Origin: Acaryochloris marina S15
Lineage (GTDB): Bacteria; Cyanobacteriota; Cyanobacteriia; Thermosynechococcales; Thermosynechococcaceae
Assembly (NCBI RefSeq): GCF_018336915.1
Contig: NZ_CP064923.1
Coordinates: 3,720,001 to 3,752,000, forward strand
Direction of reading: 5' to 3'
DNA length: 32,000 nt
Shown here one piece after another: positions 6,426 through 27,210 of the stretch (position 1 is its first letter; every line of letters begins with the position of its first letter). The notes below the pieces were generated by a model that searched no databases, was not told the origin of the DNA, and was given only the letters and a program-made list of their open reading frames with translations. A program made the position numbers and the translations under genes.

Positions 6426-6803
6426 ATGCAATGCCCACTATGCGGTCATTCCAAAGCACACAAGCATGGCAAGATGCCCAACATGCTTCAACGATACCGT
6501 TGTCCTGAGTGCCAGCAGACCTTTACTGAACGCTTTGATACCCTTTACTATCGTCGTCAGGTGAGTCCAGAGCAGGTCCGACAAGTCCTCCAAGCCCATG
6601 CAGAAGGGAGTAGTCTTCGAGGTATCACTCGGACCAGTGGCCTGGCTTACAACACTGTAGTCTCTCTAGTAAGAGCTGCTAGCCAACGATCTCAGCAACT
6701 CCATAATGGTCAAGTGCAAGCCGTTGAAACGGAGGATGTCAGTGCAGATGAAATGTGGTCCTTTGTGAAAAAAAGCAAAAACACTGTCTTCCCCATGAGC
6801 TAG
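6426..6803 (+). CDS. insA: IS1-family InsA-like protein (zinc finger plus HTH), upstream frame of the transposase
   Basis: It has a CxxC...CxxC zinc finger (MQCPLCGH...RYRCPECQ) and the DEMWSFV motif just before the A-run. Confidence 0.8.
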   Translation: MQCPLCGHSKAHKHGKMPNMLQRYRCPECQQTFTERFDTLYYRRQVSPEQVRQVLQAHAEGSSLRGITRTSGLAYNTVVSLVRAASQRSQQLHNGQVQAVETEDVSADEMWSFVKKSKNTVFPMS

Positions 6804-7255
6804 AGATGGGTGATTGTTGGATGGCGATTACCTTGGCAAATACAAGCGGCGTGATCCTCTCGTGTCGTGTGGGCAAGCACACCGATTCATTATTGAATGA
6901 ACTGGTGACTAGCACTGAAGGTAAGACCGATTGCAAGGACTGGAATAGCGACGATTGGGGGGGGTACGAAAGAGTGTTGCCTTGGGAGATTGACCATTAC
7001 ATTGGCAAGGACAGAACTCAACGACTCGAACGCACCAATGGCATTATTCGACAGCACAGTGGTCGATGGCATCGACGCCAGAACAAATTTGGCAAAGTGT
7101 GGGCGCAAACCAAAGTCACTGCTCGATTAGTGGTCAGCTATTTCAATTGGATTTGGACACACAGTCGGCTTAAAACAACGGCGGCACAACGTGCTGATCT
7201 AGCCTCGCGAGCTTGGCATTGGGATGACATACTCACCTACCCCACAATTGTTTGA
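6755..7255 (+). CDS. insB: IS1-family InsB-like catalytic frame (expressed as an InsAB' fusion by -1 frameshift)
   Basis: This frame overlaps insA in the -1 frame. Continuing across the A-run gives DEMWSFVKKKQKHCLPHE...W.A, typical of IS1 transposases. The ORF ends inside the right IR. Confidence 0.8.
   Translation: MVLCEKKQKHCLPHELEMGDCWMAITLANTSGVILSCRVGKHTDSLLNELVTSTEGKTDCKDWNSDDWGGYERVLPWEIDHYIGKDRTQRLERTNGIIRQHSGRWHRRQNKFGKVWAQTKVTARLVVSYFNWIWTHSRLKTTAAQRADLASRAWHWDDILTYPTIV
6768..6774 (+). promoter_or_regulatory. A7 slippery run, the likely programmed -1 frameshift site of the IS1 transposase
   Basis: The sequence GTGAAAAAAAGC sits in the insA/insB overlap. IS1 elements are known to frameshift on an A-run. 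Confidence 0.6.
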
Positions 7256-12605: not shown

Positions 12606-14312
12606 ATGTATTCACCTCAAGAGATAGACGTTCAGGATATTGACCATCTCGGTATTATTGCCGGTATCGTCGATGAGATCGGCATTGTCGAAATAGTGGA
12701 TCGATTATTAGGTACTCACGAGCAAGAGAATGTTAGTTGTGGTCAAGTTGTCAAAGCCCTGATTCTAAATGGTATGGGCTTTTTGAGTGCTCCATTGTAC
12801 TTATTTAGTGAGTTTTTCGAAAGCAAAGCAACCGAGCACTTACTCGGTCAAGGTGTACTGCCAGAGCACCTCAACGATACCCGTATCGGTCGAGTCCTCG
12901 ACAAGCTCTATGCCTATGGTGTGACCCAGATATTTATCCATGTGGCAATGGCAGTCGTTCAGAAATTCGATGTAGCTCTAAGGTGTGCGCATCTAGATGC
13001 GACAAGCCTTAGTGTTGAGGGGCAATACTTAGATAAACCACAGGTTGAGGCGTCAGACGAATCCCCCTCTGCACCTGAGTCCCCCTCCCCTGCACTGGCT
13101 GAATCAGAGGAGCCGATACCCGTGAAAATCACCTACGGCTACTCACGGGACAATCGTCGTGATCTCAAGCAGTTTGTATTGAACCTACTGGTGAGTGGGG
13201 ACGGGGGTATTCCTTTATTTTTACAAGTGGGCAACGGTAATGATGCGGACAAAAGTACGTTTGTGCCTATCATCCATGAATTTAAGCAACAGTGGAGTCA
13301 GCAACAGCCAGAGGTGATTGTTGCTGATAGTGCCCTCTACAGTGCCGACAATCTGCAAGCATTAGGAAGTACATCTTGGATTAGCCGAGTTCCAGCAAGT
13401 TCAACGGCAGCCCAAGACTTATTACAAGGGCTGCCGGGTTCACAGTTTCACCCCAGTGCTCTCAACGGCTATAGCTTTGTCGAAGTATGTAGTACCTATG
13501 GAGAGATTCAACAACGGTGGCTGGTGGTTGAAAGTAAAGCTCGCAGAGACTCTGGACTCAAACAAGTGCAAAAGCGGATTGATCAGGCGTTTAGCCAAAA
13601 AACTACTGCACTTAAAACCCTCTGCAAACAGACCTTCTTGTGCCCTGCAGATGCTTTAGCTGCAGCCCAAGATTTTGGCAAAATCCTCAGGTATCACACC
13701 CTTGACGATCTCAAAATCCACAAAAAACCTCATTATTCAAAGGCTGGACGACCGACAAAAGCAACGGTTGTGACTCACTACACCTATTCTATTGAGGCTA
13801 CCTTAACCCTCAATGAGCCAGTCATCGAACGCTATCGGCGGCAAGCAGGTCGTTTCATCTTAGCCACCAATCTCTTGGAACAAGAGCAATGGAGCAATGA
13901 TGATATTCTGCGCGAGTATAAGAACCAGCAGGCGTGTGAAGGAGGCTTTCGCTTTATCAAAGATCCACTCTTCTTTGCCTCTAGTGTTTTCCTGAAGACA
14001 CCTCGGCGTATCGCTGCCTTAGCCATGATCATGGCCTTGTGTTTGATGGTCTACAGCTTAGGACAACGACAGTTAAGAAATGCACTAGAACAAGTACAAA
14101 CAACTCTCCCTAATCAGAAGGGGAAACAAACTATGAAACCTACGTTACGTTGGATTCTCCAATGCTTTCAGGCCGTCCATTTAGTTTGGCTTGATGGTGC
14201 CAAGCATCTCATCAAGCTCAACAGCAGGCAGCAACTTATCTTGCCGTTCCTTGGGAAGGGCTGTAAAAAATATTATCTGCTCTGCTATAGATCTACAGAT
14301 AAAGATCCGTGA
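12606..14312 (+). CDS. IS1634-family transposase, with a C-terminus altered by the IS630 insertion
   Basis: The N-terminal block DIDHLGIIAGIVDEIGIVEIVD..LG...VSCGQVVKALILNGMGF is typical of IS1634-group transposases. The last 8 codons (YRSTDKDP) are read from IS630 sequence. Confidence 0.85.
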   Translation: MYSPQEIDVQDIDHLGIIAGIVDEIGIVEIVDRLLGTHEQENVSCGQVVKALILNGMGFLSAPLYLFSEFFESKATEHLLGQGVLPEHLNDTRIGRVLDKLYAYGVTQIFIHVAMAVVQKFDVALRCAHLDATSLSVEGQYLDKPQVEASDESPSAPESPSPALAESEEPIPVKITYGYSRDNRRDLKQFVLNLLVSGDGGIPLFLQVGNGNDADKSTFVPIIHEFKQQWSQQQPEVIVADSALYSADNLQALGSTSWISRVPASSTAAQDLLQGLPGSQFHPSALNGYSFVEVCSTYGEIQQRWLVVESKARRDSGLKQVQKRIDQAFSQKTTALKTLCKQTFLCPADALAAAQDFGKILRYHTLDDLKIHKKPHYSKAGRPTKATVVTHYTYSIEATLTLNEPVIERYRRQAGRFILATNLLEQEQWSNDDILREYKNQQACEGGFRFIKDPLFFASSVFLKTPRRIAALAMIMALCLMVYSLGQRQLRNALEQVQTTLPNQKGKQTMKPTLRWILQCFQAVHLVWLDGAKHLIKLNSRQQLILPFLGKGCKKYYLLCYRSTDKDP

Positions 14313-15521
14313 TTAGCTAGGCAGCTTGTGTACCCAAGGTTTTGCAATATTTGCCCATTAAGACAGTAATTTCATTGGGAGTCTGACTAAAGTACAGTAG
14401 CCCCTCATCGACCTGCTGAACTAAGTCATCAAATTGCTTGAAGAACCGTAGGTGTGTGCTGCGTTTTTTGAGTTTCTTCCACAAGAATTCAATTGGGTTG
14501 AAGTCAGGAGAATATGTGGGTAATTGGAAAGGAGTAAGGCGAGCGGATTGCTGGTCAAAGAACTGCTTAGTTGCTTTACTGGTGTGATATCTAGCCCCGT
14601 CCTGAATGAGAATAATATGCTTGTGAGTCTGCTGGAGTACTTGAGTTAGAAAAGCAGTATACCCTTCAGAATTGAAGCGTCCCGTCTGACCTTGATAGAA
14701 GAACTGACCAGAATGATAATCAATTAATCCAAACACCTTGTAAGCCTTCCGTTTACCACTGGTGGGCAATGTTGGCTGGTCTCCACGAAGACTCCAGGTG
14801 TAGCTTAACGACCCCCACTGCGCAAAACTGGCCTCATCCCCAAATAAAATTAGGGCATCTTTGGCTGCTGATAAACGCAAAATCTCAGGCCATTTGTGTG
14901 TCATCCATTCTTGTCGCTTGGCTTCATTGAGATGAGCTGCAACAAACCGTGCTCTTTGAAATGAAAAGCCTAAGTTCCTCAGTAGAGTACTCACATAATG
15001 GGGATGATAGGAAACATTGAAGCGTTTCGCAATCAGGTCTTGAACCATTAATGCACTCCAACAACCACACTCGTATCCAGCTTTGAGCGGACCTGCTTTA
15101 ATCCATGACTTGAGCTGTTGTCGTTGCCGTGGAGTGAGTTTGCTGCGACGTCCTTGAGACGCTTTGTATCTAAAGCTAGCGATACCTCGTTTTAGAAATG
15201 CATGCAGATAATCCCTGATCGTTTGTTCGCCTAGTGCCAATGTTTCAGCTACCTGTGCCACTGAACCACCTTGACCAAGCTGCAATAAAGCACTAATACG
15301 TTTGACCAGACGTAAATTCTGACTCCCGTATGCCTGGCGCAGTTTAGCTTCAATCTTTTTGCGTGTTGATTGGGTAAAGCGCAGTTTGAATTGTGCGAGC
15401 ATACTGGATGACCTCTGATAATCTTGAAATCCTTGCCAGAGCTAAGAGTATCAGGAGCTAGTTACTATATTTAATGAAGATGTAGTGTCGCTAAAACCAC
15501 GGATGCTTTTCTGAAGATCTA
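14288..15521 (-). mobile_element. IS630-family insertion sequence (1234 bp) with a TA target duplication
   Basis: The IR TAGATCTACAGATAAAGATCCGTG (14288-) matches the reverse complement of the right end (TAGATCTTCAGAAAAGCATCCGTG) at about 20/24 positions. TA is present at 14286-14287 and 15522-15523, as expected for IS630/Tc1-mariner elements. Confidence 0.85.
14317..15402 (-). CDS. IS630-family transposase (HTH plus DDE_3)
   Basis: It has N-terminal HTH regions and the DDE region LFGDEASF...ILIQDGARYHTS...YSPDFNPIEFLWKKLK. Confidence 0.9.
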   Translation of the reverse strand: MLAQFKLRFTQSTRKKIEAKLRQAYGSQNLRLVKRISALLQLGQGGSVAQVAETLALGEQTIRDYLHAFLKRGIASFRYKASQGRRSKLTPRQRQQLKSWIKAGPLKAGYECGCWSALMVQDLIAKRFNVSYHPHYVSTLLRNLGFSFQRARFVAAHLNEAKRQEWMTHKWPEILRLSAAKDALILFGDEASFAQWGSLSYTWSLRGDQPTLPTSGKRKAYKVFGLIDYHSGQFFYQGQTGRFNSEGYTAFLTQVLQQTHKHIILIQDGARYHTSKATKQFFDQQSARLTPFQLPTYSPDFNPIEFLWKKLKKRSTHLRFFKQFDDLVQQVDEGLLYFSQTPNEITVLMGKYCKTLGTQAA

Positions 15522-15852: not shown

Positions 15853-15908
15853 GTTCTAGTTACTTCATCCCAGACTATAAATGTAGCCTGGGATGAAGTA
15901 ATTAGAAC
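15853..15908. repeat. long hairpin / inverted repeat (21-bp arms with one mismatch, 14-nt loop)
   Basis: GTTCTAGTTACTTCATCCCAG (15853-15873) pairs with CTGGGATGAAGTAATTAGAAC (15888-15908). The inner 14 bp are perfect. Confidence 0.85.
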
Positions 15909-16058
15909 CCTATCTAAAGCAATATTGCAGCCGATATCACTGAGAGCCATTGCCTCAAGTTTTTGATGCTACCTCTAATCCAGAAAGTCATTCCAAGGCT
16001 CAAGAAGATGTCTCACAGCCTTAAATAATTAGCAGCTGTAACTCTAAGAGAGATTCGT

Positions 16059-17718: not shown

Positions 17719-17852
17719 GTTTAACGGGGGTATCAATACAGATAAATTCTCGCCCCCCTGACGTAAATGAGGCTTGTTCTATTTTGTCGTTTTTCTAACC
17801 CTCAGAATAGAAGGTTGCTTTCTGAACGTCTGAATTGAGGAAAAGGCTAGAA
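17719..17852 (-). repeat. attC-like junction element C (downstream of the Uma2 gene)
   Basis: On the plus strand it reads TTAACGG 17721-17727, GGTTG 17813-17817, CTGAACGT 17822-17829 and GGCTAGAA 17845-17852. In the gene direction it ends CCGTTAAAC, which fits GTTRRRY. An internal hairpin pairs GGGGG 17726-17730 with the C-run at 17753-17758. Confidence 0.4.
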
Positions 17853-17938
17853 GTTCATTGCTTCTGCTGCAATGCAAACATCAGGTGTGTGCGGATGTGA
17901 CTTGCCATCAGTTTATTCCTGGCTGACAACTTCAATCC

Positions 17939-18502
17939 TTACTCCAGCAGCCAAGCAAATAACTCTCTTACCGTAAGCTGTAACTCGTTGGCAAAAGAGG
18001 GTGCAGGAATGATTTTATCTGGCTCATCCAGGACTTCAGGTTCTTGCTTGGGACGATAGACAAACACTGTTTGTTCACCTGGGTCGATTAACCAACCCAC
18101 TTCGGTTCCATGCTGCAAACAGTGAAGAATATTCTTTGTGACCTTTGTTTGGCTTTGATTGGGAGATAGGATCTCAACTACCCAATCTGGTGCAGTAGAA
18201 AACGCGTTGGCAATTTCCCCATTCTGATCGCGGGGAATTCGGTGCCAAAGAAACACTGCAATATCAGGAACGATTGAACGATGGCCAAATGTACAGCGCA
18301 GTTCAGGAAAGGCACGAGCAATACGTTTGGATTTAACGACCCCATTGATAGCAGGTACAAGTTCTCCTTGAATGACGCTATGTTTCCCTTGGGGTATTGG
18401 CTTTTGAATAATTTGGCTATCAAGGTATTCATTGGCAGGTTTCGTTTCTGGCAATTCCAAAAACTCTGCCAAGGTCAGCGTTTTTGAGGAGGGCTGTACC
18501 AT
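17939..18502 (-). CDS. Uma2-family (DUF820) putative restriction-endonuclease-like protein
   Basis: It shows the typical cyanobacterial Uma2 layout: LTLAEFLELPE...EYLDSQI...P..KHS..QGEL...PDIAV...APDWVVEILSP. Confidence 0.85.
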   Translation of the reverse strand: MVQPSSKTLTLAEFLELPETKPANEYLDSQIIQKPIPQGKHSVIQGELVPAINGVVKSKRIARAFPELRCTFGHRSIVPDIAVFLWHRIPRDQNGEIANAFSTAPDWVVEILSPNQSQTKVTKNILHCLQHGTEVGWLIDPGEQTVFVYRPKQEPEVLDEPDKIIPAPSFANELQLTVRELFAWLLE

Positions 18503-18650
18503 TTAGGTTTACTCTTTGCCCGTAAGTTTGGAAACTCAACACTATTTTATCTAGAAACTGTATGGGGAGTACGTTTTTGCTGGGGATTACGACTATTGCG
18601 CCTGACAAATCACTAGAAAAGCTGGATTCTCTTTCATAATCAACGACCCA

Positions 18651-18754
18651 AGCCAGCTAACTCCAATTAACGGCCTTGCCTCACTGGCGTGAGTAGACCT
18701 CAAAAAACAATATGGCTATGGTTACTGAACGTCCGGTGCAGGGGTTGGCTAGAA
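18651..18754 (-). repeat. attC-like junction element B (between the TA cassette and the Uma2 gene)
   Basis: On the plus strand it reads TTAACGG 18667-18673, GGTTAC 18720-18725, CTGAACGT 18725-18732 and GGCTAGAA 18747-18754. The outer arms CCAGCTAAC (18653-18661) and GTTGGCTAG (18744-18752) pair at 7/9. The element starts 17 nt after the antitoxin stop. Confidence 0.45.
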
Positions 18755-18770
18755 ATGGATTTAGCTCAAA

Positions 18771-19064
18771 CTAAGGTGTTGGTTGAATGGTTAGCTTGAA
18801 CCCAAGCGCTTTAGTAACTTCAGCTATCGTCGAAAATGTGGGGTTACCATCAGGAGACAGCGCTTTATATAGCCCTTCTCTACTCAAACCTGTATCTCGG
18901 GATAGCTGACTCATATTTTTAGCTCTAGCGACTACCCCTAGGGCATGAATAATTAAAGCAGGATCATCTTCGGCTTCTTCCAGGCATGCTTCTAGATATA
19001 GCTGAATATCTTCTTCTGTTTTGAGATGTTCGGCTGAATCCCAGCGGGTTATGCTTATGGCCAT
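18771..19064 (-). CDS. addiction-module antidote protein (HTH, HigA-like family)
   Basis: The sequence ...AEHLKTEEDIQLYLEACLEE.DDPALIIHALGVVARAKNMSQLSRDTGLSREGLYKALS..GNP.F.T matches the probable-antidote family that pairs with the killer family upstream. Confidence 0.85.
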   Translation of the reverse strand: MAISITRWDSAEHLKTEEDIQLYLEACLEEAEDDPALIIHALGVVARAKNMSQLSRDTGLSREGLYKALSPDGNPTFSTIAEVTKALGFKLTIQPTP

Positions 19065-19067
19065 AAC

Positions 19068-19364
19068 TCAATCCTCCAACTGTTTAGCAATTTCTTTAGC
19101 CCTTTTGATGTCAGCATTTTATGAGCCTTTATCACCACCAGAAAGCAATATGACAACCACTGGACCACGTTGTATAAAGTAAACCCTGTAACCAGGACCA
19201 TAATGAATGCGAAGTTCGCTAACACCTTCCCCGACGGGGGCGACATCTCCAAAGTTGCCAATCTCGATACGGTCAATACGTGCTTGTATTCGCGCTTTAG
19301 CCTTTCGATCTCGCAGTTTCTTGAACCAATTAGCAAAAATGTCTGTTTGGCGCACCTCAATCAT
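19068..19364 (-). pseudogene. addiction-module killer protein (RelE/ParE superfamily) with a premature in-frame TAA
   Basis: The sequence is MIEVRQTDIFANWFKKLRD..AKARI..RIDRIE.GNFGD..PVGEGVSELRIHYGPGYRVYF......VVILLSGGDKGS*. The frame continues as NADIKRAKEIAKQLED to a TGA at 19068-19070, which abuts the antitoxin ATG. The TAA is at 19119-19121. Confidence 0.8.
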
Positions 19365-19422
19365 GTGTCAACCATAGTTAACGAGCAATAAGCTGTCAAC
19401 TACAGTTATCAGTCAAGATGAT

Positions 19423-19566
19423 TCTAGGCTGGGTCAAATTTTAACGGCTCGGCATCAGGGGCGCGAGAATTATTTTAAAGCGTTGACCAGTAGCGTGTTT
19501 CGAGCGTCCTGCCTGCATGCCATGGTTAGACTACAGCACAGAACATGCAAGACTTATACGCTAGAG
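19423..19566 (-). repeat. attC-like junction element A (between the OLD-family gene and the TA cassette); best-folding copy, core 19439-19531
   Basis: In the gene direction the core begins GTCTAAC (fits RYYYAAC) and ends GTTAAAA. About 22 bp pair between 19440-19468 and 19498-19530. An unpaired spacer (GGCTC vs CAT) lies after the terminal box, and all bulged bases (19502-03, 19507, 19510-11, 19516) are on one arm. The shared blocks are TTAACGG 19441-19447, GGTTAG 19524-19529, CAGAACAT 19539-19546 and CGCTAGAG 19559-19566. Confidence 0.55.
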
Positions 19567-19574
19567 GCGATCGC
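19567..19574. repeat. HIP1 palindrome GCGATCGC (one of seven exact copies in the window)
   Basis: Exact copies were read at 2473-2480, 2770-2777, 8446-8453, 19567-19574, 24762-24769 and 29547-29554, plus this one. HIP1 enrichment is a known cyanobacterial hallmark. Confidence 0.8.
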
Positions 19575-19860
19575 CCAAAACCAGAAAACGGTACTCACAA
19601 AAGTATAACTGGAGCAAAATGAAGACGGGACAAAGACAAGAAACACTTACTAAGCCATCAAAAATTACAACCAAAACGAGATAGTGGTAACAACAGACAA
19701 ATGTATGGCTGAGACGAGAATATGATATCAGTGTTTTGGCTAATATTCCCAATCACTGAACTTAGGAGGTTTTTAAACATAACAAAAATATACAGTGTTT
19801 CGTTTCAGTAAGCTTGTTAATTTAGTCACTATCTAATCAACATCTTGCTCGCACAATGCC

Positions 19861-22065
19861 TCATACTACTATTTCTTGAATCACTGATTTAATTTCTGAA
19901 TCAATTTCATCTTTCCTCATCAAGCTTGCCAACTTAGAAGTATCTTTTTCCTTTTTAAAGCGTAGATTATATTCTTTACAAACTTCATCTAATAAAAGAT
20001 CACCAGGAACTATATCCATCTTCTTAGATTCCCAAATATTTTCTATTTCGTCAATTTTACTAGTGTAAATAGATTCAAGATTTCTTTTCTCTGTTTCTAA
20101 CTGACTAATCATTGATTGAATTGATTCAGTGATTTTATCAACTCCCTCTTGATCTTGGAATTCTTCAAAAATTGATTTAGTTTCTGGATAAATGGGTTTG
20201 CAGACTATTTTTACTACTCGTTTGCAAATTGCAAATTGCTTTAAATTTTCTGCACATCCATTAATTTTATCTTGTACTTCGTTTTCTGTTGGTAATTCTT
20301 GATTAAGAGTATTCGATATTTTTCGTTTATACTCAATGAAGCTTCTTACTGCTCTCGGACAAATTAGATAGTTCTCCACTTCCCTCTTATTTAATACTTT
20401 AAGTTTTGCATTCTCCCCAAGCCTGGCTTGCATTTTCAAAATCTCAGAATCGTCCTTTTCATCTCTATCTATGAGGAACCACATCCTGACTTGACGTTTA
20501 GCTAGAAAGTTTAAAGTTTCTTCTGTAGCAAAATGAGCAAAATTACGTGCTCCACCCATACGAATAAATCCTACATTTGCTTGACTAAGATTAACGCCTA
20601 GTACAGAAGCCCATTCTCGAATTGCATCCTCGTCTGTTATACCCTCTACAAAAACAAGACGGTCAAACATAAATAGAGAGCTTAATCTAATACCAAGCTC
20701 TTGTGGAATCTTTGCTTCTGCCTCTCCAATATCAATTTGACGTATCTGAGTTGAATTTGGTTTCGTAACCAAATATACATTATTCATTTCAGCAGTATCT
20801 AAGAAATTAGTTGAGTGAGTTGTTATAAAAACCTGGCAATCACAACTTATACGTTTCAAATATCGCATCATACTTGTCTCAAGAGCTGGATGCAAATGTA
20901 TTTCTGGCTCTTCAACAAGTAGTATATCTGGATGCTCAAACTCAACATCTAGTAATAGTCTTAAAGCTTCCTTTATGCCCGACCCATTTACTCCCACCAA
21001 AAAATTATCGACATCCATTTCGGCAGACATCTGATTTGTAGATATTGAGGAGTCGCTTTCAAATGCATCAACATACACACCTAATAATGCTGAAACTGTT
21101 TCTTGGATGTTTTTAAGAGCTTCAAATCCCCCTCTTCGCGTTTTTAATGAAAGAAGTCGTTCAGCCTCTTCTTTACCTATTCTCTTACGTTTCTCAGTAA
21201 GATAGAGAACGTTAATTTCACCTATTCTCTTCAAAAGAGTTTTGACGTAATGAGGTATTGATGCTTCTTCTCCAGCAAAAGTTCCTATTTTATTACTCAG
21301 GACTTTATTCACAGTAGATATTGATTCTTCTTTATAGCTAGTAGACAGATCAGGGATTGCACTTTTTAGATCTTCAATAGATGCTTGCGTCCCAACTCTT
21401 TCTTCAAGAATTTTTATGGTGTCACCATCAATTTTTCTAGCTAAATACTCAAGAGGGGGACGGTCACGTAAGTCAGGTCGAATATATCTTCTAAGACCGT
21501 CTAAATCTAGAGAATTCAAGTCCTCTGAAATATTATCTAACTCTTTAGATCGTAAAAAATTATCATATAGTTCCAAAGCACTTCTTTCATCTACACTCAA
21601 AATGATTCCTTCACAATTAAAAAGTGCTACTCCAGATTTAGGAATTCCTCCTAAACTCACTTTTTGAATATAGCTAAAGGTAGATGGTGGAGGCATAACA
21701 ACAAGTGCCACAGAAAGATGAAGTGATGGATTAATTCCATCCACTGCATTTTTCATTTGCGGTGCTTCTGTAGCAATATCTCTTATCAAAGCATCTCTTT
21801 CAGATAATTTCAAAGAAAACACTAGATTAATCTCTATAGGATATTGAGATTCTTTGTTAAAGAAATCAATTTCCTTTCCAATATTAGGGCTGAGATTTAA
21901 TACTTCCCCATTATTTATGCATTTAAAGAACGCATTTATAGCAGAAAGAGCACTTGATTTTCCAGAGTTATTTTTGCCTATAAGGACATTGAATTCTCCA
22001 CAATCATCTAGTTTCGCATCTTCAATACTGCGAAATCTTTTGATTATTACATTTTCAAGCTTCAT
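19861..22065 (-). CDS. OLD-family nuclease-like protein: N-terminal ABC/AAA_15-type ATPase fused to a Toprim (DUF4435-like) domain with a long helical C-terminal tail
   Basis: Motifs seen are Walker A GKNNSGKS (aa 30-37), signature-like NGSGIKEAL (aa 360-368), Walker B ILLVEEPEIHLHP (aa 381-393) and H-loop FITTHS (aa 413-418). The Toprim motifs are VFVEGITDE (aa 471-479), LIDRDEKDD (aa 531-539) and REVENYL (aa 561-567). The protein is 734 aa. Confidence 0.8.
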   Translation of the reverse strand: MKLENVIIKRFRSIEDAKLDDCGEFNVLIGKNNSGKSSALSAINAFFKCINNGEVLNLSPNIGKEIDFFNKESQYPIEINLVFSLKLSERDALIRDIATEAPQMKNAVDGINPSLHLSVALVVMPPPSTFSYIQKVSLGGIPKSGVALFNCEGIILSVDERSALELYDNFLRSKELDNISEDLNSLDLDGLRRYIRPDLRDRPPLEYLARKIDGDTIKILEERVGTQASIEDLKSAIPDLSTSYKEESISTVNKVLSNKIGTFAGEEASIPHYVKTLLKRIGEINVLYLTEKRKRIGKEEAERLLSLKTRRGGFEALKNIQETVSALLGVYVDAFESDSSISTNQMSAEMDVDNFLVGVNGSGIKEALRLLLDVEFEHPDILLVEEPEIHLHPALETSMMRYLKRISCDCQVFITTHSTNFLDTAEMNNVYLVTKPNSTQIRQIDIGEAEAKIPQELGIRLSSLFMFDRLVFVEGITDEDAIREWASVLGVNLSQANVGFIRMGGARNFAHFATEETLNFLAKRQVRMWFLIDRDEKDDSEILKMQARLGENAKLKVLNKREVENYLICPRAVRSFIEYKRKISNTLNQELPTENEVQDKINGCAENLKQFAICKRVVKIVCKPIYPETKSIFEEFQDQEGVDKITESIQSMISQLETEKRNLESIYTSKIDEIENIWESKKMDIVPGDLLLDEVCKEYNLRFKKEKDTSKLASLMRKDEIDSEIKSVIQEIVV

Positions 22066-22680
22066 ATTTTTATCGATGTTATTTCCTTAGAGAGGTATTT
22101 TTCGAGAGATAGGAGGAAGAATAGAATTTAAGCAGTAACCCTTACAACAATAAAATATATTTTATGATTCAAGTATGACTTTATTAAACAATACTTCAGA
22201 CAGTTATAAATGCAACGCCTAGTATTCCTGATGTTTTCGTTGAGTCTAAAATCTTGAAAGCCTTATTTTTTCTTCAAATTTAAAACAATCCGAGCTATTA
22301 CGGCTCAATTTCTCTATCAATAATTTCAAACCATTACTTTAATAATGAATTGGCTCTATCTTTACATTATTTCCTGACGAGTAATTCTACAATCTCACTC
22401 TCACTAAACATAAGGACTAACTATAATTAGAAGGCAAATTTCCTCCTAACACGAAATAAATTAATAGCTTGTCTGCTCCTTAAAGCCAAGCCTCTTCTAC
22501 ATTAGTACTACAGCAGAAAGAGTACGTATTACGGAAATTTCCCGATATGCAAAATTGTAGTTGATTATCTAAAAACAATATAGAAAAAGCATTTCTAGCA
22601 TCTTTATCATGCAGCAATGAAGAATGTTAATGGACAAAATAACTGTATAAGTCCCAATATCGGTTGTTATCAGACACACA

Positions 22681-23033
22681 ATGCCACCCCAAAAACTCCT
22701 TGACCAAGTCCGTGATGTAATGCGAACCAAGCATTATGCGTACAGTACTGAAAAAACTATGTGCAGTGGATCCGGCACTATATTATCTTCCACAACAAAC
22801 GTCATCCTAAAGAAATGGCTGAACCTGAAGTTGAAGCGTTTCTGACTCATCTAGCCGTAAGCGAACATGTTTCTGCCTCAACCCAAAATTAAGCCCTCTG
22901 TGCCCTGATATTTCTGTACCGATACGTTCACAAATAGCCTCTGACTGAAACGACTGAAGCAGCGCGTGCCCAACGCTCACAACATCTACCCACAGTCTTT
23001 ACCCCTGACAAAGTAAGCCGACTCCTCCAGTAA
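22681..23033 (+). pseudogene. intI: N-terminal remnant (about 118 codons) of an integron-integrase-like tyrosine recombinase
   Basis: Conceptual translation gives MPPQKLLDQVRDVMRTKHYAYSTEKT[-1 nt near 22758]YVQWIRHYIIFHNKRHPKEMAEPEVEAFLTHLAVSEHVSASTQN*ALCALIFLYRYVHK*PLTE..RSQHLPTVFTPDKVSRLLQ*. The stops are at 22890-22892 (TAA), 22935-22937 (TAG) and 23031-23033. It is collinear with the IntI1 N-terminus ([21 protein letters not shown]..RHP...EVEAFLS.LA....VS.ST..QAL.AL.F.Y...L......RLPVVLTPDEV). The catalytic domain is absent. Confidence 0.8.
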
Positions 23034-23098
23034 GGAAAGTTTAGACCAGATATTCTCTAGAATAGTGAAGCAAACGCAGACCTTCAGGAGTAATAGTA

Positions 23099-25666
23099 GT
23101 GGAGTCCCGTTACAATCCCACCGAGATTGAACCCAAATGGCAAGCAAGCTGGGCCAAACAGGGGCTAGATGCAACTCCTGAAGATACCAGCAAACCCAAA
23201 TTCTATGCCCTGTCCATGTTTCCCTACCCCTCAGGTAGCTTACACGTCGGCCATACCCGCAACTATGTAATTACCGACGTCATCGCCCGCCTCAAGCGGA
23301 TGCAGGGCTACCGAGTTCTCCAGCCCATGGGTTGGGACGCCTTTGGTCTACCTGCCGAAAATGCCGCCATCGCTCGGGGGATTCATCCCGCCGAGTGGAC
23401 CTATGCCAACATGGCGCAAATGAAAAAGCAGCTAGAGCCTCTGGGACTCTCCATTGACTGGAGCCGGGAAATCGCCACCTGCTCTCCTGACTACTATCGG
23501 TGGACCCAGTGGATCTTTCTGCAATTTCTGGATATGGGACTGGCTTACCAGAAAGAAGCCGCTGTCAACTGGGACCCGGTGGACCAAACTGTTCTTGCTA
23601 ACGAGCAGGTGGATAATGAAGGTCGCTCTTGGCGATCCGGGGCCAAGGTGGAGCGCAAACTGCTGCGCCAGTGGTTCCTAAAAATTACCGACTATGCGGA
23701 AGAACTCTTAACCGACTTAGATAAACTGACCGGCTGGCCTGAACGGGTCAAAACCATGCAGGCCAACTGGATTGGCAAATCCGTGGGGGCCTATCTGGAG
23801 TTCCCAATTGTGGGTATGGATGACAAGGTAGCCGTATTCACGACCCGCCCTGATACGGTCTATGGCGTCACCTATGTGGTGCTGGCCCCAGAACATCCCC
23901 TCACTCCCCAAGTCACCAGCAAAGCCCAGAAAAAAGCGGTGGATAAATTTATTGAAGAAGTTGGGGCCGAGAGCGAAATGGATCGCACGGCGGAAGACAA
24001 GCCTAAGAAAGGCATTCCCACAGGTGGCAAAGCCATCAACCCCTTTACGGGGGAAGAAATTCCCATCTGGATTGCCGACTACGTACTGTATGAGTACGGG
24101 ACAGGTGCGGTGATGGGGGTGCCCGCCCATGACACACGAGACTTTGTCTTTGCCAAGCAGAATAAGCTGCCGATTCAAACGGTAATTGTGCCTGAAGGTA
24201 GTGATGCGGATACGCCCTTAGAAGCCGCCTATACCGAACCTGGATTGATGGTGAACTCCGGTGAATTTGATGGCAAAGCCTCCACCGAAGGCAAGCAGGC
24301 CATTATTGCCAAAGCCGAGACCAAAGGCTGGGGAAAGGCTAGGGTGCAATATCGTCTGCGGGATTGGCTGATTTCCCGACAGCGCTATTGGGGCGTGCCG
24401 ATTCCGGTGATTCACTGTCCCAAGTGTGGGGCTGTGCCCGTACCCGAAGCCGATCTGCCCGTGGAGCTGCCCGAAGATGTGGAGTTCTCGACTCAAGGTG
24501 GATCGCCCCTGGCCAAACTAGAATCCTGGGTCAATGTCGCTTGTCCCACCTGCGGGGCAGATGCCAAACGGGAAACCGATACCATGGATACCTTTATTGA
24601 TTCGTCTTGGTATTTTCTTCGTTATCCCGATGCCAAAAATGACAAAGCAGTCTTTGATTCAGCGAAAGCCAATGATTGGCTACCCGTTGATCAATATGTA
24701 GGTGGGATTGAACATGCGATTTTGCACCTATTATATTCGCGATTTTTTACGAAAGTGATGCGCGATCGCAAACTCCTCAACTTCGATGAACCCTTCAAAA
24801 AGCTGCTCACCCAAGGGATGGTGCAAGCTCTCACCTATAAAAACCAGGAGACGGGGAAGTATATTGCACCTATTAATGTTGATGCTGACGATCCTAAGGA
24901 TCCAGAAACAGGTGCACCCTTGGAAGCCTTTTACGAAAAGATGTCCAAGTCTAAATACAATGGCGTCCCCCCGGAAGAGGTCACCAATAAGTACGGAGCC
25001 GATACCGCCCGTCTATTCACCTTATTTAAGGCCCCCCCTGAAAAAGATCTGGAGTGGGAAGGCGCAGATGTGGAAGGTCAATTCCGGTTTCTGAATCGGG
25101 TTTGGCGACTGGTCAGTGAACATGCCGCCCAAGCCAAGGGCAAGAAAGCAAAGGTAAATAAAGCCAAGCTCTCGAAAACAGAGAAGGAACTGCGAAGATC
25201 CGTTCATATTGCCATCAAAGAAACCAGTGAAGATTTAGACGGCGATTATCAGTTCAATACTGCCGTATCCGAACTGATGAAGCTGAGCAATGCCCTCAGT
25301 GATTCCAAGGAGAAAGCGTCTCCCGTCTATGCCGAAGGTGTGGAAACCTTGCTGCTGCTCCTCACCCCCTTTGCCCCCCATATCAGTGAAGAGCTGTGGG
25401 AGAACCTAGGGCATTCCGAGTCGATTCTGGGTCAGCCTTGGCCTCAGGTGGATAAAGAGGCTCTGGTGGCCGATGAAATTACCTTAGTGATTCAAATTAT
25501 GGGCAAAACCCGAGGCACTATCCAAGTGCCGGCTGGAGCCAGCCGGGAAGATTTGGAACAGCTCGCCCGCGAGTCGGAAGTGGCCCAGCGGTATATTGCT
25601 GACAAAGAAGTGAAAAAGGTGATTGTCGTTCCGGGCAAGCTGGTGAACTTTGTGGTGCCAAAATAG
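23099..25666 (+). CDS. leuS: leucine--tRNA ligase
   Basis: It has the HIGH-type motif [11 protein letters not shown], the KMSKS motif and an 855-aa class Ia layout with a CP1 editing insertion. The GTG start is preceded by AGGAG about 9 nt upstream. Confidence 0.96.
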
Positions 25667-26564: not shown

Positions 26565-26990
26565 TCAATCAGCAATCTCAAAAGGGTTAATCAGGGATGC
26601 CCCTGTATCAGCAAAATCACTCACATTACGAGTCACCAAAGTTAAGTCACGAGTAAGAGCAATAGCAGCAATTTGTTTGTCGATGGCATTTTGGGGGTGG
26701 GGAGCGCATAAACACCCCCATACCTGAGCTTCCACTTCCGTAAAATCGAGAATATGGTCAGCATAGCTGTCTAAAATGGTTTGCAACCAATTCTCTAATA
26801 GGCTAGCTTGCGGTAAATCACCACGATAGCGAATCAGTTCAACCCCTCGACGTAACTCTCCAATAGTGATGGCACTGATGTATAAGCGAGCTTTTTGCTC
26901 AGCAGCAACCTGAAAAAACTTCCGTACACCCGGATCAGCTCTTGCCTGCTTGCGGAGTTCACTAATGACGTTGGTATCAATCAAATACAT
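26565..26990 (-). CDS. vapC: type II toxin, PIN-domain ribonuclease (VapC/FitB-like)
   Basis: It has the MYLIDTNVISELRK N-terminal PIN motif and later acidic residues (...ALTRDLTLVTRNVSDF). It overlaps the upstream antitoxin gene by 14 nt. Confidence 0.85.
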   Translation of the reverse strand: MYLIDTNVISELRKQARADPGVRKFFQVAAEQKARLYISAITIGELRRGVELIRYRGDLPQASLLENWLQTILDSYADHILDFTEVEAQVWGCLCAPHPQNAIDKQIAAIALTRDLTLVTRNVSDFADTGASLINPFEIAD

Positions 26991-27210
26991 CTTGAGCTAA
27001 GTCATCCTGGATTCGCTCAAAATCTTCGTCACAGCCAACCTGTGGAATTTGGCAAAGAACTTCAGAGAAGGACTTCTGGGGTGGATGAAACAATACCTGT
27101 TCTAAGATTTTGCGATGTTCGGCCTCAGCGCTCACGCCATTCTGACTAGCCCGCATCTTTAAGGCTCTGACTATAGAGTCGTCAATATTACGAACAATCA
27201 GATTTGCCAT
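26977..27210 (-). CDS. type II antitoxin, ribbon-helix-helix (FitA/VapB-like)
   Basis: The start MANLIVRNIDDSIVRALKMRASQNGVSAEAEHRKILEQ is typical of FitA-like RHH antitoxins. It is translationally coupled to vapC. Confidence 0.75.
   Translation of the reverse strand: MANLIVRNIDDSIVRALKMRASQNGVSAEAEHRKILEQVLFHPPQKSFSEVLCQIPQVGCDEDFERIQDDLAQDVFD

Follow-up and report, generated by a model that had tools for sequence, protein, structure and literature searches.

What are the imperfectly palindromic elements that separate a run of same-strand genes in the chromosome of the cyanobacterium Acaryochloris marina S15? Three of them lie in a 32-kb stretch of DNA (32,000 nucleotides; NCBI RefSeq GCF_018336915.1, contig NZ_CP064923.1, positions 3,720,001 to 3,752,000), which we analysed as a whole and call the window. 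An initial annotation, made from the letters of the window, had described them as attC-like junctions, referred to here as copies A, B and C. Our analysis indicates that the region from about 17.7 to 23.06 kb of the window is very probably a degenerate sedentary chromosomal integron with a plus-strand stub of the integrase gene intI, an attI site and at least three minus-strand cassettes, in which copies B and C are attC sites. The description of the elements as attC-like cassette junctions was borne out by a divergent intI pseudogene with its attI, by recovery of B and C with a covariance model, and by breaks in homology between strains at the GTTA cores. B and C are genuine attC sites, though weak ones; copy A is a remnant.

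When an integron is functional, attC is folded on its bottom strand into a hairpin made up of an R box (R''/R'), a spacer that stays unpaired and an L box with extrahelical bases on one arm. The integrase IntI binds this hairpin and cuts it in the bottom-strand AAC, which corresponds to G|TT in the top strand; recombination with attI gives insertion, and recombination with another attC gives excision.

An integrase remnant and an attI site

Two features at the leuS end of the region identify the integron platform.

22681-23060, plus strand: what remains of an integron integrase gene (delta-intI), running divergently from the genes on the minus strand
22417-22450, minus strand: core end of attI, GTTAGGAGGAAATTTGCCTTCTAATTATAG|TTAG, identical in the window and in two related strains (L002 and L087) to ...ATAGTTA

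The remnant retains the N-terminal ~115 residues of the integrase, about one third of the protein, and is interrupted by one frameshift and in-frame stops; leuS starts at 23099. Its three-frame translation reads MPPQKLLDQVRDVMRTKHYAYSTEKT / YVQWIRHYIIFHNKRHPKEMAEPEVEAFLTHLAVSEHVSASTQN* ... RAQRSQHLPTVFTPDKVSRLLQ. When joined, these pieces matched the NCBIfam integron integrase family TIGR02249 (E=6e-38, positions 1-112 of 315), XerD (E=9e-7) and the Pfam family Phage_int_SAM_4; the far lower E-value for TIGR02249 than for XerD makes the remnant specific to integron integrases. The closest relatives of the remnant are cyanobacterial, and it is 86% identical to the intact integrase of L087. The catalytic domain is absent throughout the window, where tblastn with full-length cyanobacterial IntI matched residues ~50-165 only, and the window likewise offers no platform intI with the IntI-specific extra domain and catalytic residues. 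A scan of genome contigs found no integrase with more than 70% identity to the remnant.

The attI site lies beside intI, and the cassettes begin at its GTT in a single orientation, divergent from the integrase gene. Beyond the attI sequence ...AATTATAGTTA each of the three strains continues differently, and the array genes are without exception on the minus strand. The start of the array in Synechococcus sp. PCC 7336 also carries ...GTATAGTTAGG. Judged from the sequence, the crossover would fall between G22421 and T22420. With a divergent intI, a gap and a series of genes on one strand, each with a palindromic element at its 3' end, the arrangement is that of an integron.

Recognition of copies B and C by an attC covariance model

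The covariance model used here, R2, contains no sequence from the window. Reference loci (Synechococcus PCC 7336, L004, and other cyanobacterial loci) were retrieved with the integrase remnant. Eight seeds gave a model, R1. Searching ~1 Mb of foreign loci with it at E<0.01 yielded 75 sites, which lie mostly on the strand divergent from intI, and R2 was made from the alignment of these 75 sites. They are distributed over 25 foreign loci, 20 of which have a frame open through the intI match (316-405 amino acids, aa), and one reference-locus integrase scored 469.9 bits for TIGR02249. In the alignment 91.5% of cells are paired and compensatory changes occur in 18 of the 22 pairs, indicating a real structured family. 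Sites of the reference loci are of textbook form: R'' (RYCTAAC) is separated by 8-9 nt from an unpaired G, CAGCGG or CACCGG comes next, followed by an unpaired A, and past a loop of variable length lie CCGCTG, a short stem, a spacer that ends in CC, and GTTAGGY. Among these 75 environmental sites (alignment A3, L004-L085), the unpaired top-strand G stands beside the L box in 67 and the unpaired A six pairs on in 72, giving T-N6-C on the bottom strand, as against T-N6-G in class 1 cassettes such as aadA1.

The whole window was searched with R2 with filters off. Copies C and B were recovered over the full model; copy A is listed with them for its position.

19439-19531, minus strand: attC of cassette 1, the inner part of copy C; R2 30.2 bits, E=2.2e-6, model positions 1-88
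18665-18754, minus strand: attC of cassette 2, copy B; R2 21.8 bits, E=5.6e-4, model positions 1-88
17719-17852, minus strand: copy A, an eroded or composite attC remnant, with a left arm homologous to B (TTCTAGCC...GACGTTCAG) and the end CCCCCGTTAAAC

The next-best match in the 64 kb searched (12.5 bits, E 0.26) was a local one inside the OLD gene that skips 38 central model positions. The attC site of copy C is 93 bp long and reads R'' GTCTAAC-CAT-GGCAT[G]CAGG[CA]GG[A]CGC ... GCGCC-CCTG-ATGCC-GAGCC-R' GTTAAAA, with unpaired bases in brackets. It has the R'' and R' cores of attC (RYYYAAC and GTTRRRY, 57-141 bp apart), apart from the last base of R', which is A and not the Y of GTTRRRY, and its inserts and bulges are all on the R'' arm. 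Copy B reads R'' TTCTAGC-CAAC-CCT[G]CACCGG[A]CG ... CG-CCAGTG-AGG-CAAGGCC-R' GTTAATT, with GTT in R'; its CCT[G]CACCGG[A] pairs with CCAGTG-AGG, the extrahelical bases again being on the R'' arm. The unpaired [G]-N6-[A] on its top strand corresponds to T-N6-C on the bottom strand, and its L box is almost identical to that of an attC of PCC 7336 (GCT[G]CACCGGA...CCGGTGAGC). Without exception, the unpaired bases of B and C belong to the R''-side arm, in agreement with the 75 reference sites. Copy A is not recognized by the model.

R1, with its eight seeds, was marginal for C and B (E 0.23 and 1.4), and its match at 19738-19822 looked spurious and was not reproduced by the broader R2. A naive R''/R' search with constrained folding gave many false candidates. 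A heuristic stem finder returned 221 matches compared with 182 in a reversed-sequence control, and was useful solely for picking seeds by eye. Placing the R'' of copy B at the internal CAGTAAC (GGTTA block) was considered and dropped, since L-box pairing, homology to the PCC 7336 site and the model alignment all put R'' at TTCTAGC.

Five non-cyanobacterial loci (L037, L070, L058, L083 and L064; Acidobacteriota and others) showed attC matches downstream of intI on the same strand, the opposite of the divergent layout in the cyanobacterial loci.

The block pattern of the three copies

The initial annotation had defined the elements by four ordered blocks (TTAACGG, GGTT[A/G], C[T/A]GAAC[G/A]T and [G/C]GCTAGA), and direct inspection found these at the coordinates it gave in all three copies. 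A regular expression for the four blocks with their spacings matched the window three times (17721-17851, 18667-18753 and 19441-19565, all on the minus strand) and matched none of 500 dinucleotide-preserving shuffles, a statistic inflated by the post hoc derivation of the pattern from the same sequences. Copies A and B indeed share long exact words, TTCTAGCC and GACGTTCAG, in the same order. The sharing does not extend to copy C in this form: its outer two blocks fit loosely (TCTAGCG and ATGTTCTG), lie outside the attC site and are probably there by chance or as a remnant.

Nor are the blocks equivalent across copies or assigned to the right boxes: R'' is the GCTAGA block in B (and A) and the GGTTA block in C. 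The perfect box GTTAAAC attributed to copy C in fact ends copy A; C ends in GTTAAAA and B in GTTAATT. A start soon after a stop codon was confirmed for B (17 nt), not for A (87 nt) or for C as first delimited (~296 nt). Two further sequences had been linked to the family, a fourth partial copy at 15981-16007 and a TTACGGCTC match at 22298-22306; neither gave a score with the attC model, and the latter belongs to a small local hairpin. A generic repeat finder recovered only a 27-mer between B and C and an inverted 17-mer between A and C. An Rfam gathering scan of the window gave no matches; attC is not known to have an Rfam family.

Cassettes differ between strains at the core sites

The strain contig L002 (a Logan contig of 9.8 kb) is syntenic with the window at ~91% identity and carries leuS, the same truncated intI, the attI side and the HigBA-attC-Uma2 block. 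Between attI and HigBA, the place of the OLD gene is taken in L002 by four small genes, and window and contig differ again downstream of Uma2. In a base-level alignment, identity runs to ...AATTATAGTTAG at attI and ends there, and upstream of HigBA it begins at AGCCGTTA, the R' end of copy C; homology is thus broken at ATAG|TTA of attI and at GCCG|TTA of copy C. L002 contains two further R2-positive attC sites (59.2 and 24.5 bits), and its version of copy B has lost 13 nt of the right arm. A third strain, L087, was found in metagenomes through a 21-mer of attI. There the same attI leads into yet another sequence, unlike those of the window and L002, and the IntI is intact (322 aa, 469.8 bits against a TIGR02249 cut-off of 265). 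Copies B and C are thus members of attC by sequence and structure, and the intI remnant, the common attI and these cassette differences at core sites are direct observations as well.

Further features of the two strains were noted. In L087 (26-116, minus strand), attI (…ATAGTTA) is directly followed by a 64-bp palindrome, TACGAAC-TAGCGGAT…ATCCGCTA-GTTCGTA (R2 10.2 bits, E 0.05), which looks like a minimal cassette lacking an open reading frame (ORF) or a bare attC in first position. In L002 (1332-1410, minus strand), a second copy of the 32-bp attI end (TAGGAGGAAATTTGCCTTCTAATGATAGTTA) lies upstream of adh_short, fused to a copy of the Uma2 cassette leader, and near 1800 a higB-like gene fragment ends at GATAG|TTAGCC. 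The second attI end and the higB-like fragment are signs of past rearrangement inside the array.

As imperfect palindromes at the 3' ends of cassettes, B and C would be expected to be cut at G|TT, by a recombination chemistry taken over here from the known integron mechanism. The integrase encoded in cis is now dead, its catalytic domain having been lost already in the common ancestor with L002. The sites show decay as well, in the change of AAC to AGC in R'' of copy B, poor R box pairing in B and C, loss of any folding excess and scrambling of copy A; the 13-nt arm loss in the L002 version of B and a premature stop in the higB gene of the window are further signs of it. Copies B and C are presumably inactive today.

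Evidence against the attC assignment

Several results weigh against this interpretation. R2 was built in this analysis and is not the attC model of IntegronFinder, and its E-values are rough owing to a shortened calibration. The R'' of copy B, TTCTAGC, has AGC in place of the AAC that is invariant in 75 of 75 reference sites, and only 3-5 of the 7 R box positions are paired in B and C. When folded with DNA parameters on both strands and compared with dinucleotide shuffles, none of the three copies folded significantly better than the shuffles on either strand (z +0.75/+0.73 for C, +0.05/-1.14 for B, ~0 for A). Copy A reached only 2.7 bits (E 1.6; 17719-17782, minus strand) as its best R2 match in a separate 291-bp search, and at its junction the 8 nt upstream of GTT are common to the window and L002. 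Finally, the break in homology after Uma2, at 17925, lies 14 nt past the stop codon and not at an attC site. This break and the 8 nt common at the copy A junction imply that not every rearrangement here was integrase-mediated.

Genuine attC sites (n=5) did show a folding signal in the same test, with z from -1.2 to -5.8: aadA1 gave -4.7 and -4.9, an L023 site -4.1 and -5.8, an L002 site -2.9 and -2.3, and two PCC 7336 sites -1.2 to -2.9. The initial annotation had proposed folding of both strands as a check and named a lack of excess over shuffled controls as grounds for rejection, and such a lack is what was found. It had also held that copy A folds best; with z ~0 on both strands, A is surpassed by the bottom strand of B (-1.14), which folds at -11.2 kcal/mol compared with -7.2 for the top strand. 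We read the weak folding as the decay of sites no longer under selection rather than as a refutation. It is outweighed because the R2 model, the integrase remnant, attI and the inter-strain junctions all favour attC.

The remaining ties of copy A to attC are its arm homology to B and C and a cassette junction in common with L002. The cassette start CCCCCGTTAAAC|ATGACTTTG, which follows copy A in the window, follows the adh_short gene in L002, so that the junction ATACCCCCGTTAAAC|ATGACTTTG stands behind a different gene in that strain. Inside copy A, GTTAGAA (17799-17793) is complementary to TTCTAGC, and the stretch holds the 17-mer that is the inverse of the right arm of C (repeat I24); just CCCCC stands ahead of GTTAAAC. 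With modest confidence, we regard copy A as one or two eroded attC sites, scrambled and still marking a cassette boundary.

Alternative explanations

Cyanobacterial genomes are rich in short repeats, HIP1 (GCGATCGC) alone having 6 sites in the window, and A, B and C have short blocks in common and fold unremarkably. They might accordingly be a generic dispersed repeat, of the repetitive extragenic palindrome (REP) or miniature inverted-repeat transposable element (MITE) kind, or a cyanobacterial intergenic palindrome that came to lie between these genes by chance. We consider this exceedingly improbable: the window has copies in the array alone, all three pointing the same way, terminal inverted repeats and target duplications are lacking, the left-arm pattern of A and B had no exact match in 241 million metagenome records, and R2, whose training sites come from foreign integron loci, recognizes B and C by sequence and structure. 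Their position 3' of genes and their imperfect palindromes would also suit intrinsic transcription terminators or hairpins stabilizing the 3' untranslated regions of the upstream genes. This, too, is highly improbable, as a terminator scan found none at A, B or C, there is no short G+C-rich stem with a 3' T run, neither RNA-like nor DNA folding exceeded the shuffles, and the conserved GTTA ends coincide with the inter-strain breakpoints.

The remaining alternative accepts the sites as attC and supposes that they are still active, a trans-acting integron integrase from elsewhere in the genome or from an incoming element excising and inserting cassettes although the cis intI is dead. The deletion of the C-terminal part of intI is common to the window and L002, and therefore predates their ~8-9% divergence in leuS; despite this common truncation their first cassettes differ, with breaks exactly at ATAG|TTA and at GCCG|TTA of copy C, and intact integrases of the same lineage exist, as in L087. 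Mobilization in trans has also been proposed for attC clusters lacking an integrase (Cury et al. 2016, PMC4889954), which counts in favour of this explanation. Against it, B and C are weak sites whose R boxes pair poorly and whose folding does not exceed that of shuffles, A is scrambled, and the B of L002 is 13 nt shorter; other breakpoints fall off the core sites, and homologous recombination of a whole segment between strains gives the same pattern. Continued activity of the sites is therefore a possibility that we rate as rather unlikely. That cassette turnover went on after the array's own integrase had lost its catalytic domain, as the truncation common to two strains ~9% diverged might suggest, we regard as unlikely. 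If it were true, the locus would be a natural integrase-less array kept dynamic in trans, and T-N6-C sites with AGC in R'' would still be usable. The comparison of the three strains is a small natural experiment on whether integrase-less arrays remain mobile.

Cassettes and neighbouring genes

The minus-strand genes, from 22065 to 16059, encode an OLD-family ATPase/TOPRIM protein, a HigB-like/HigA-like pair, a Uma2 protein, a Mo-nitro_C family protein and a 170-aa protein of unknown function. With the degenerate integron as the preferred interpretation, they include at least three cassettes.

19445-22420, minus strand: cassette 1 (2976 bp), with a gene for a 734-aa OLD-family ATPase/TOPRIM protein at 19861-22065 (Pfam AAA_15, AAA_21, OLD-like_TOPRIM)
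18671-19444, minus strand: cassette 2, with a higB-like toxin gene at 19119-19364 and a higA-like antitoxin gene at 18771-19064 (Pfam Gp49, dnstrm_HI1420)
17725-18670, minus strand: cassette 3, with a Uma2-family gene at 17939-18502 and its leader (Pfam Uma2, 1e-37)

The OLD gene of cassette 1 has a ~355-bp leader and ~330 bp of 3' sequence ahead of its attC. The best PADLOC profile for its product was fused AriAB of the PARIS system (E=1.3e-34), ahead of GajA and Old. By this resemblance to fused PARIS AriAB, the gene is a candidate single-gene phage-defence cassette. Cassette 2 is 95% identical to its counterpart in L002. Its higB-like gene has a stop at codon 82, leaving 81 aa compared with 98 aa in L002 (3748-4044), where the codon is CAA, and the antitoxin gene is intact; a promoter scan found a good sigma-70-like site within the cassette (TTGACA-17-TATGGT, 19399->19371). 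Cassette 3 is also present in L002, at 92% identity. Such contents are typical of cassettes in chromosomal integrons: a toxin-antitoxin pair that brings its own promoter-like site, an ATPase-nuclease of defence-like kind, and Uma2. Defence genes have been reported in integron cassettes.

The Uma2-family protein (17939-18502, minus strand) matched the PADLOC candidate defence family PDC-S03 (E=1.5e-17). On the distal side of the array are two back-to-back transposase genes, one with DUF4277 and DDE_Tnp_1 (IS4-like, 568 aa, plus strand) and one IS630-like with DDE_3 (361 aa, minus strand), with IS1-like fragments further off, the whole set lying within 12606-15402 and 6426-7255; these genes and fragments may mark where the array was cut. 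The IS630-like transposase gene and the 170-aa gene flank a near-perfect palindrome of 56 bp (15853-15908; 25-nt arms, 92% complementary, 6-nt loop, GTTCTAGTTACTTCATCCCAGACTA...TAGCCTGGGATGAAGTAATTAGAAC), which is not attC by the model. Beyond leuS, outside the array, a PIN-domain (VapC-like) gene of 141 aa and an overlapping upstream 77-aa ORF (26565-27210, minus strand) are probably an ordinary toxin-antitoxin pair.

What had been an unexplained repeat can be annotated clearly as part of a fossilizing chromosomal integron beside leuS, and the PARIS-like ATPase-nuclease gene and the Uma2 gene are thereby placed in cassettes. The locus documents one route of integron decay, namely truncation of the integrase, loss of attC R boxes, arm deletions and a toxin gene shortened by a stop.

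Comparison with known integrons

Sedentary chromosomal integrons with taxon-specific attC sites are already described in Cyanobacteria (Cury et al. 2016, PMC4889954; Ghaly et al. 2021, PMC8352920), and the present locus is of this ordinary, known kind, worn down. Like other cyanobacterial integrons, such as that of Synechococcus sp. PCC 7336 (L004), it has a divergent intI, attI and same-strand cassettes, the same attC layout and cassettes rich in toxin-antitoxin genes; in PCC 7336, too, intI is fragmented. It differs in that its sites are weaker, with R' GTTAA(A/T)N instead of GTTAGGY, AGC in R'' of copy B and one scrambled site, and in that one third of intI is left.

The locus also resembles a CALIN in the definition of IntegronFinder (two or more attC sites inside 4 kb, with no working intI close by), as B and C, recognized by our own model, lie 0.7 kb apart and intI is non-functional. 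Pseudogenes of intI were found near 15 of 279 attC clusters lacking an integrase (Cury et al. 2016, PMC4889954). The pseudogene test of that study, however, needs the C-terminal IntI-specific domain, which is wholly missing in the window, so that under this test the locus would probably count as a plain CALIN, and IntegronFinder would probably call it a CALIN too.

With the attC of class 1 integrons, the 59-base element (aadA1 in Tn21/R100), the sites share the RYYYAAC...GTTRRRY ends, a 5-nt spacer and an extra L-box base on the R'' arm, as well as a position directly after the gene and divergent from the integrase gene, there intI1. The aadA1 site folds strongly (z -4.7), and it was not reported by our own model in the R1 search at E<0.01. 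It has an unpaired top-strand C (bottom T-N6-G), whereas B, C and 67 of the 75 environmental sites have G (T-N6-C). This difference is a known variant, as both T-N6-C and T-N6-G are reported to be used by IntI1 (Larouche and Roy 2011, PMC3053210). The locus leaves the current understanding of integrons unaltered and adds to the cyanobacterial integrons an array in an advanced state of wear.

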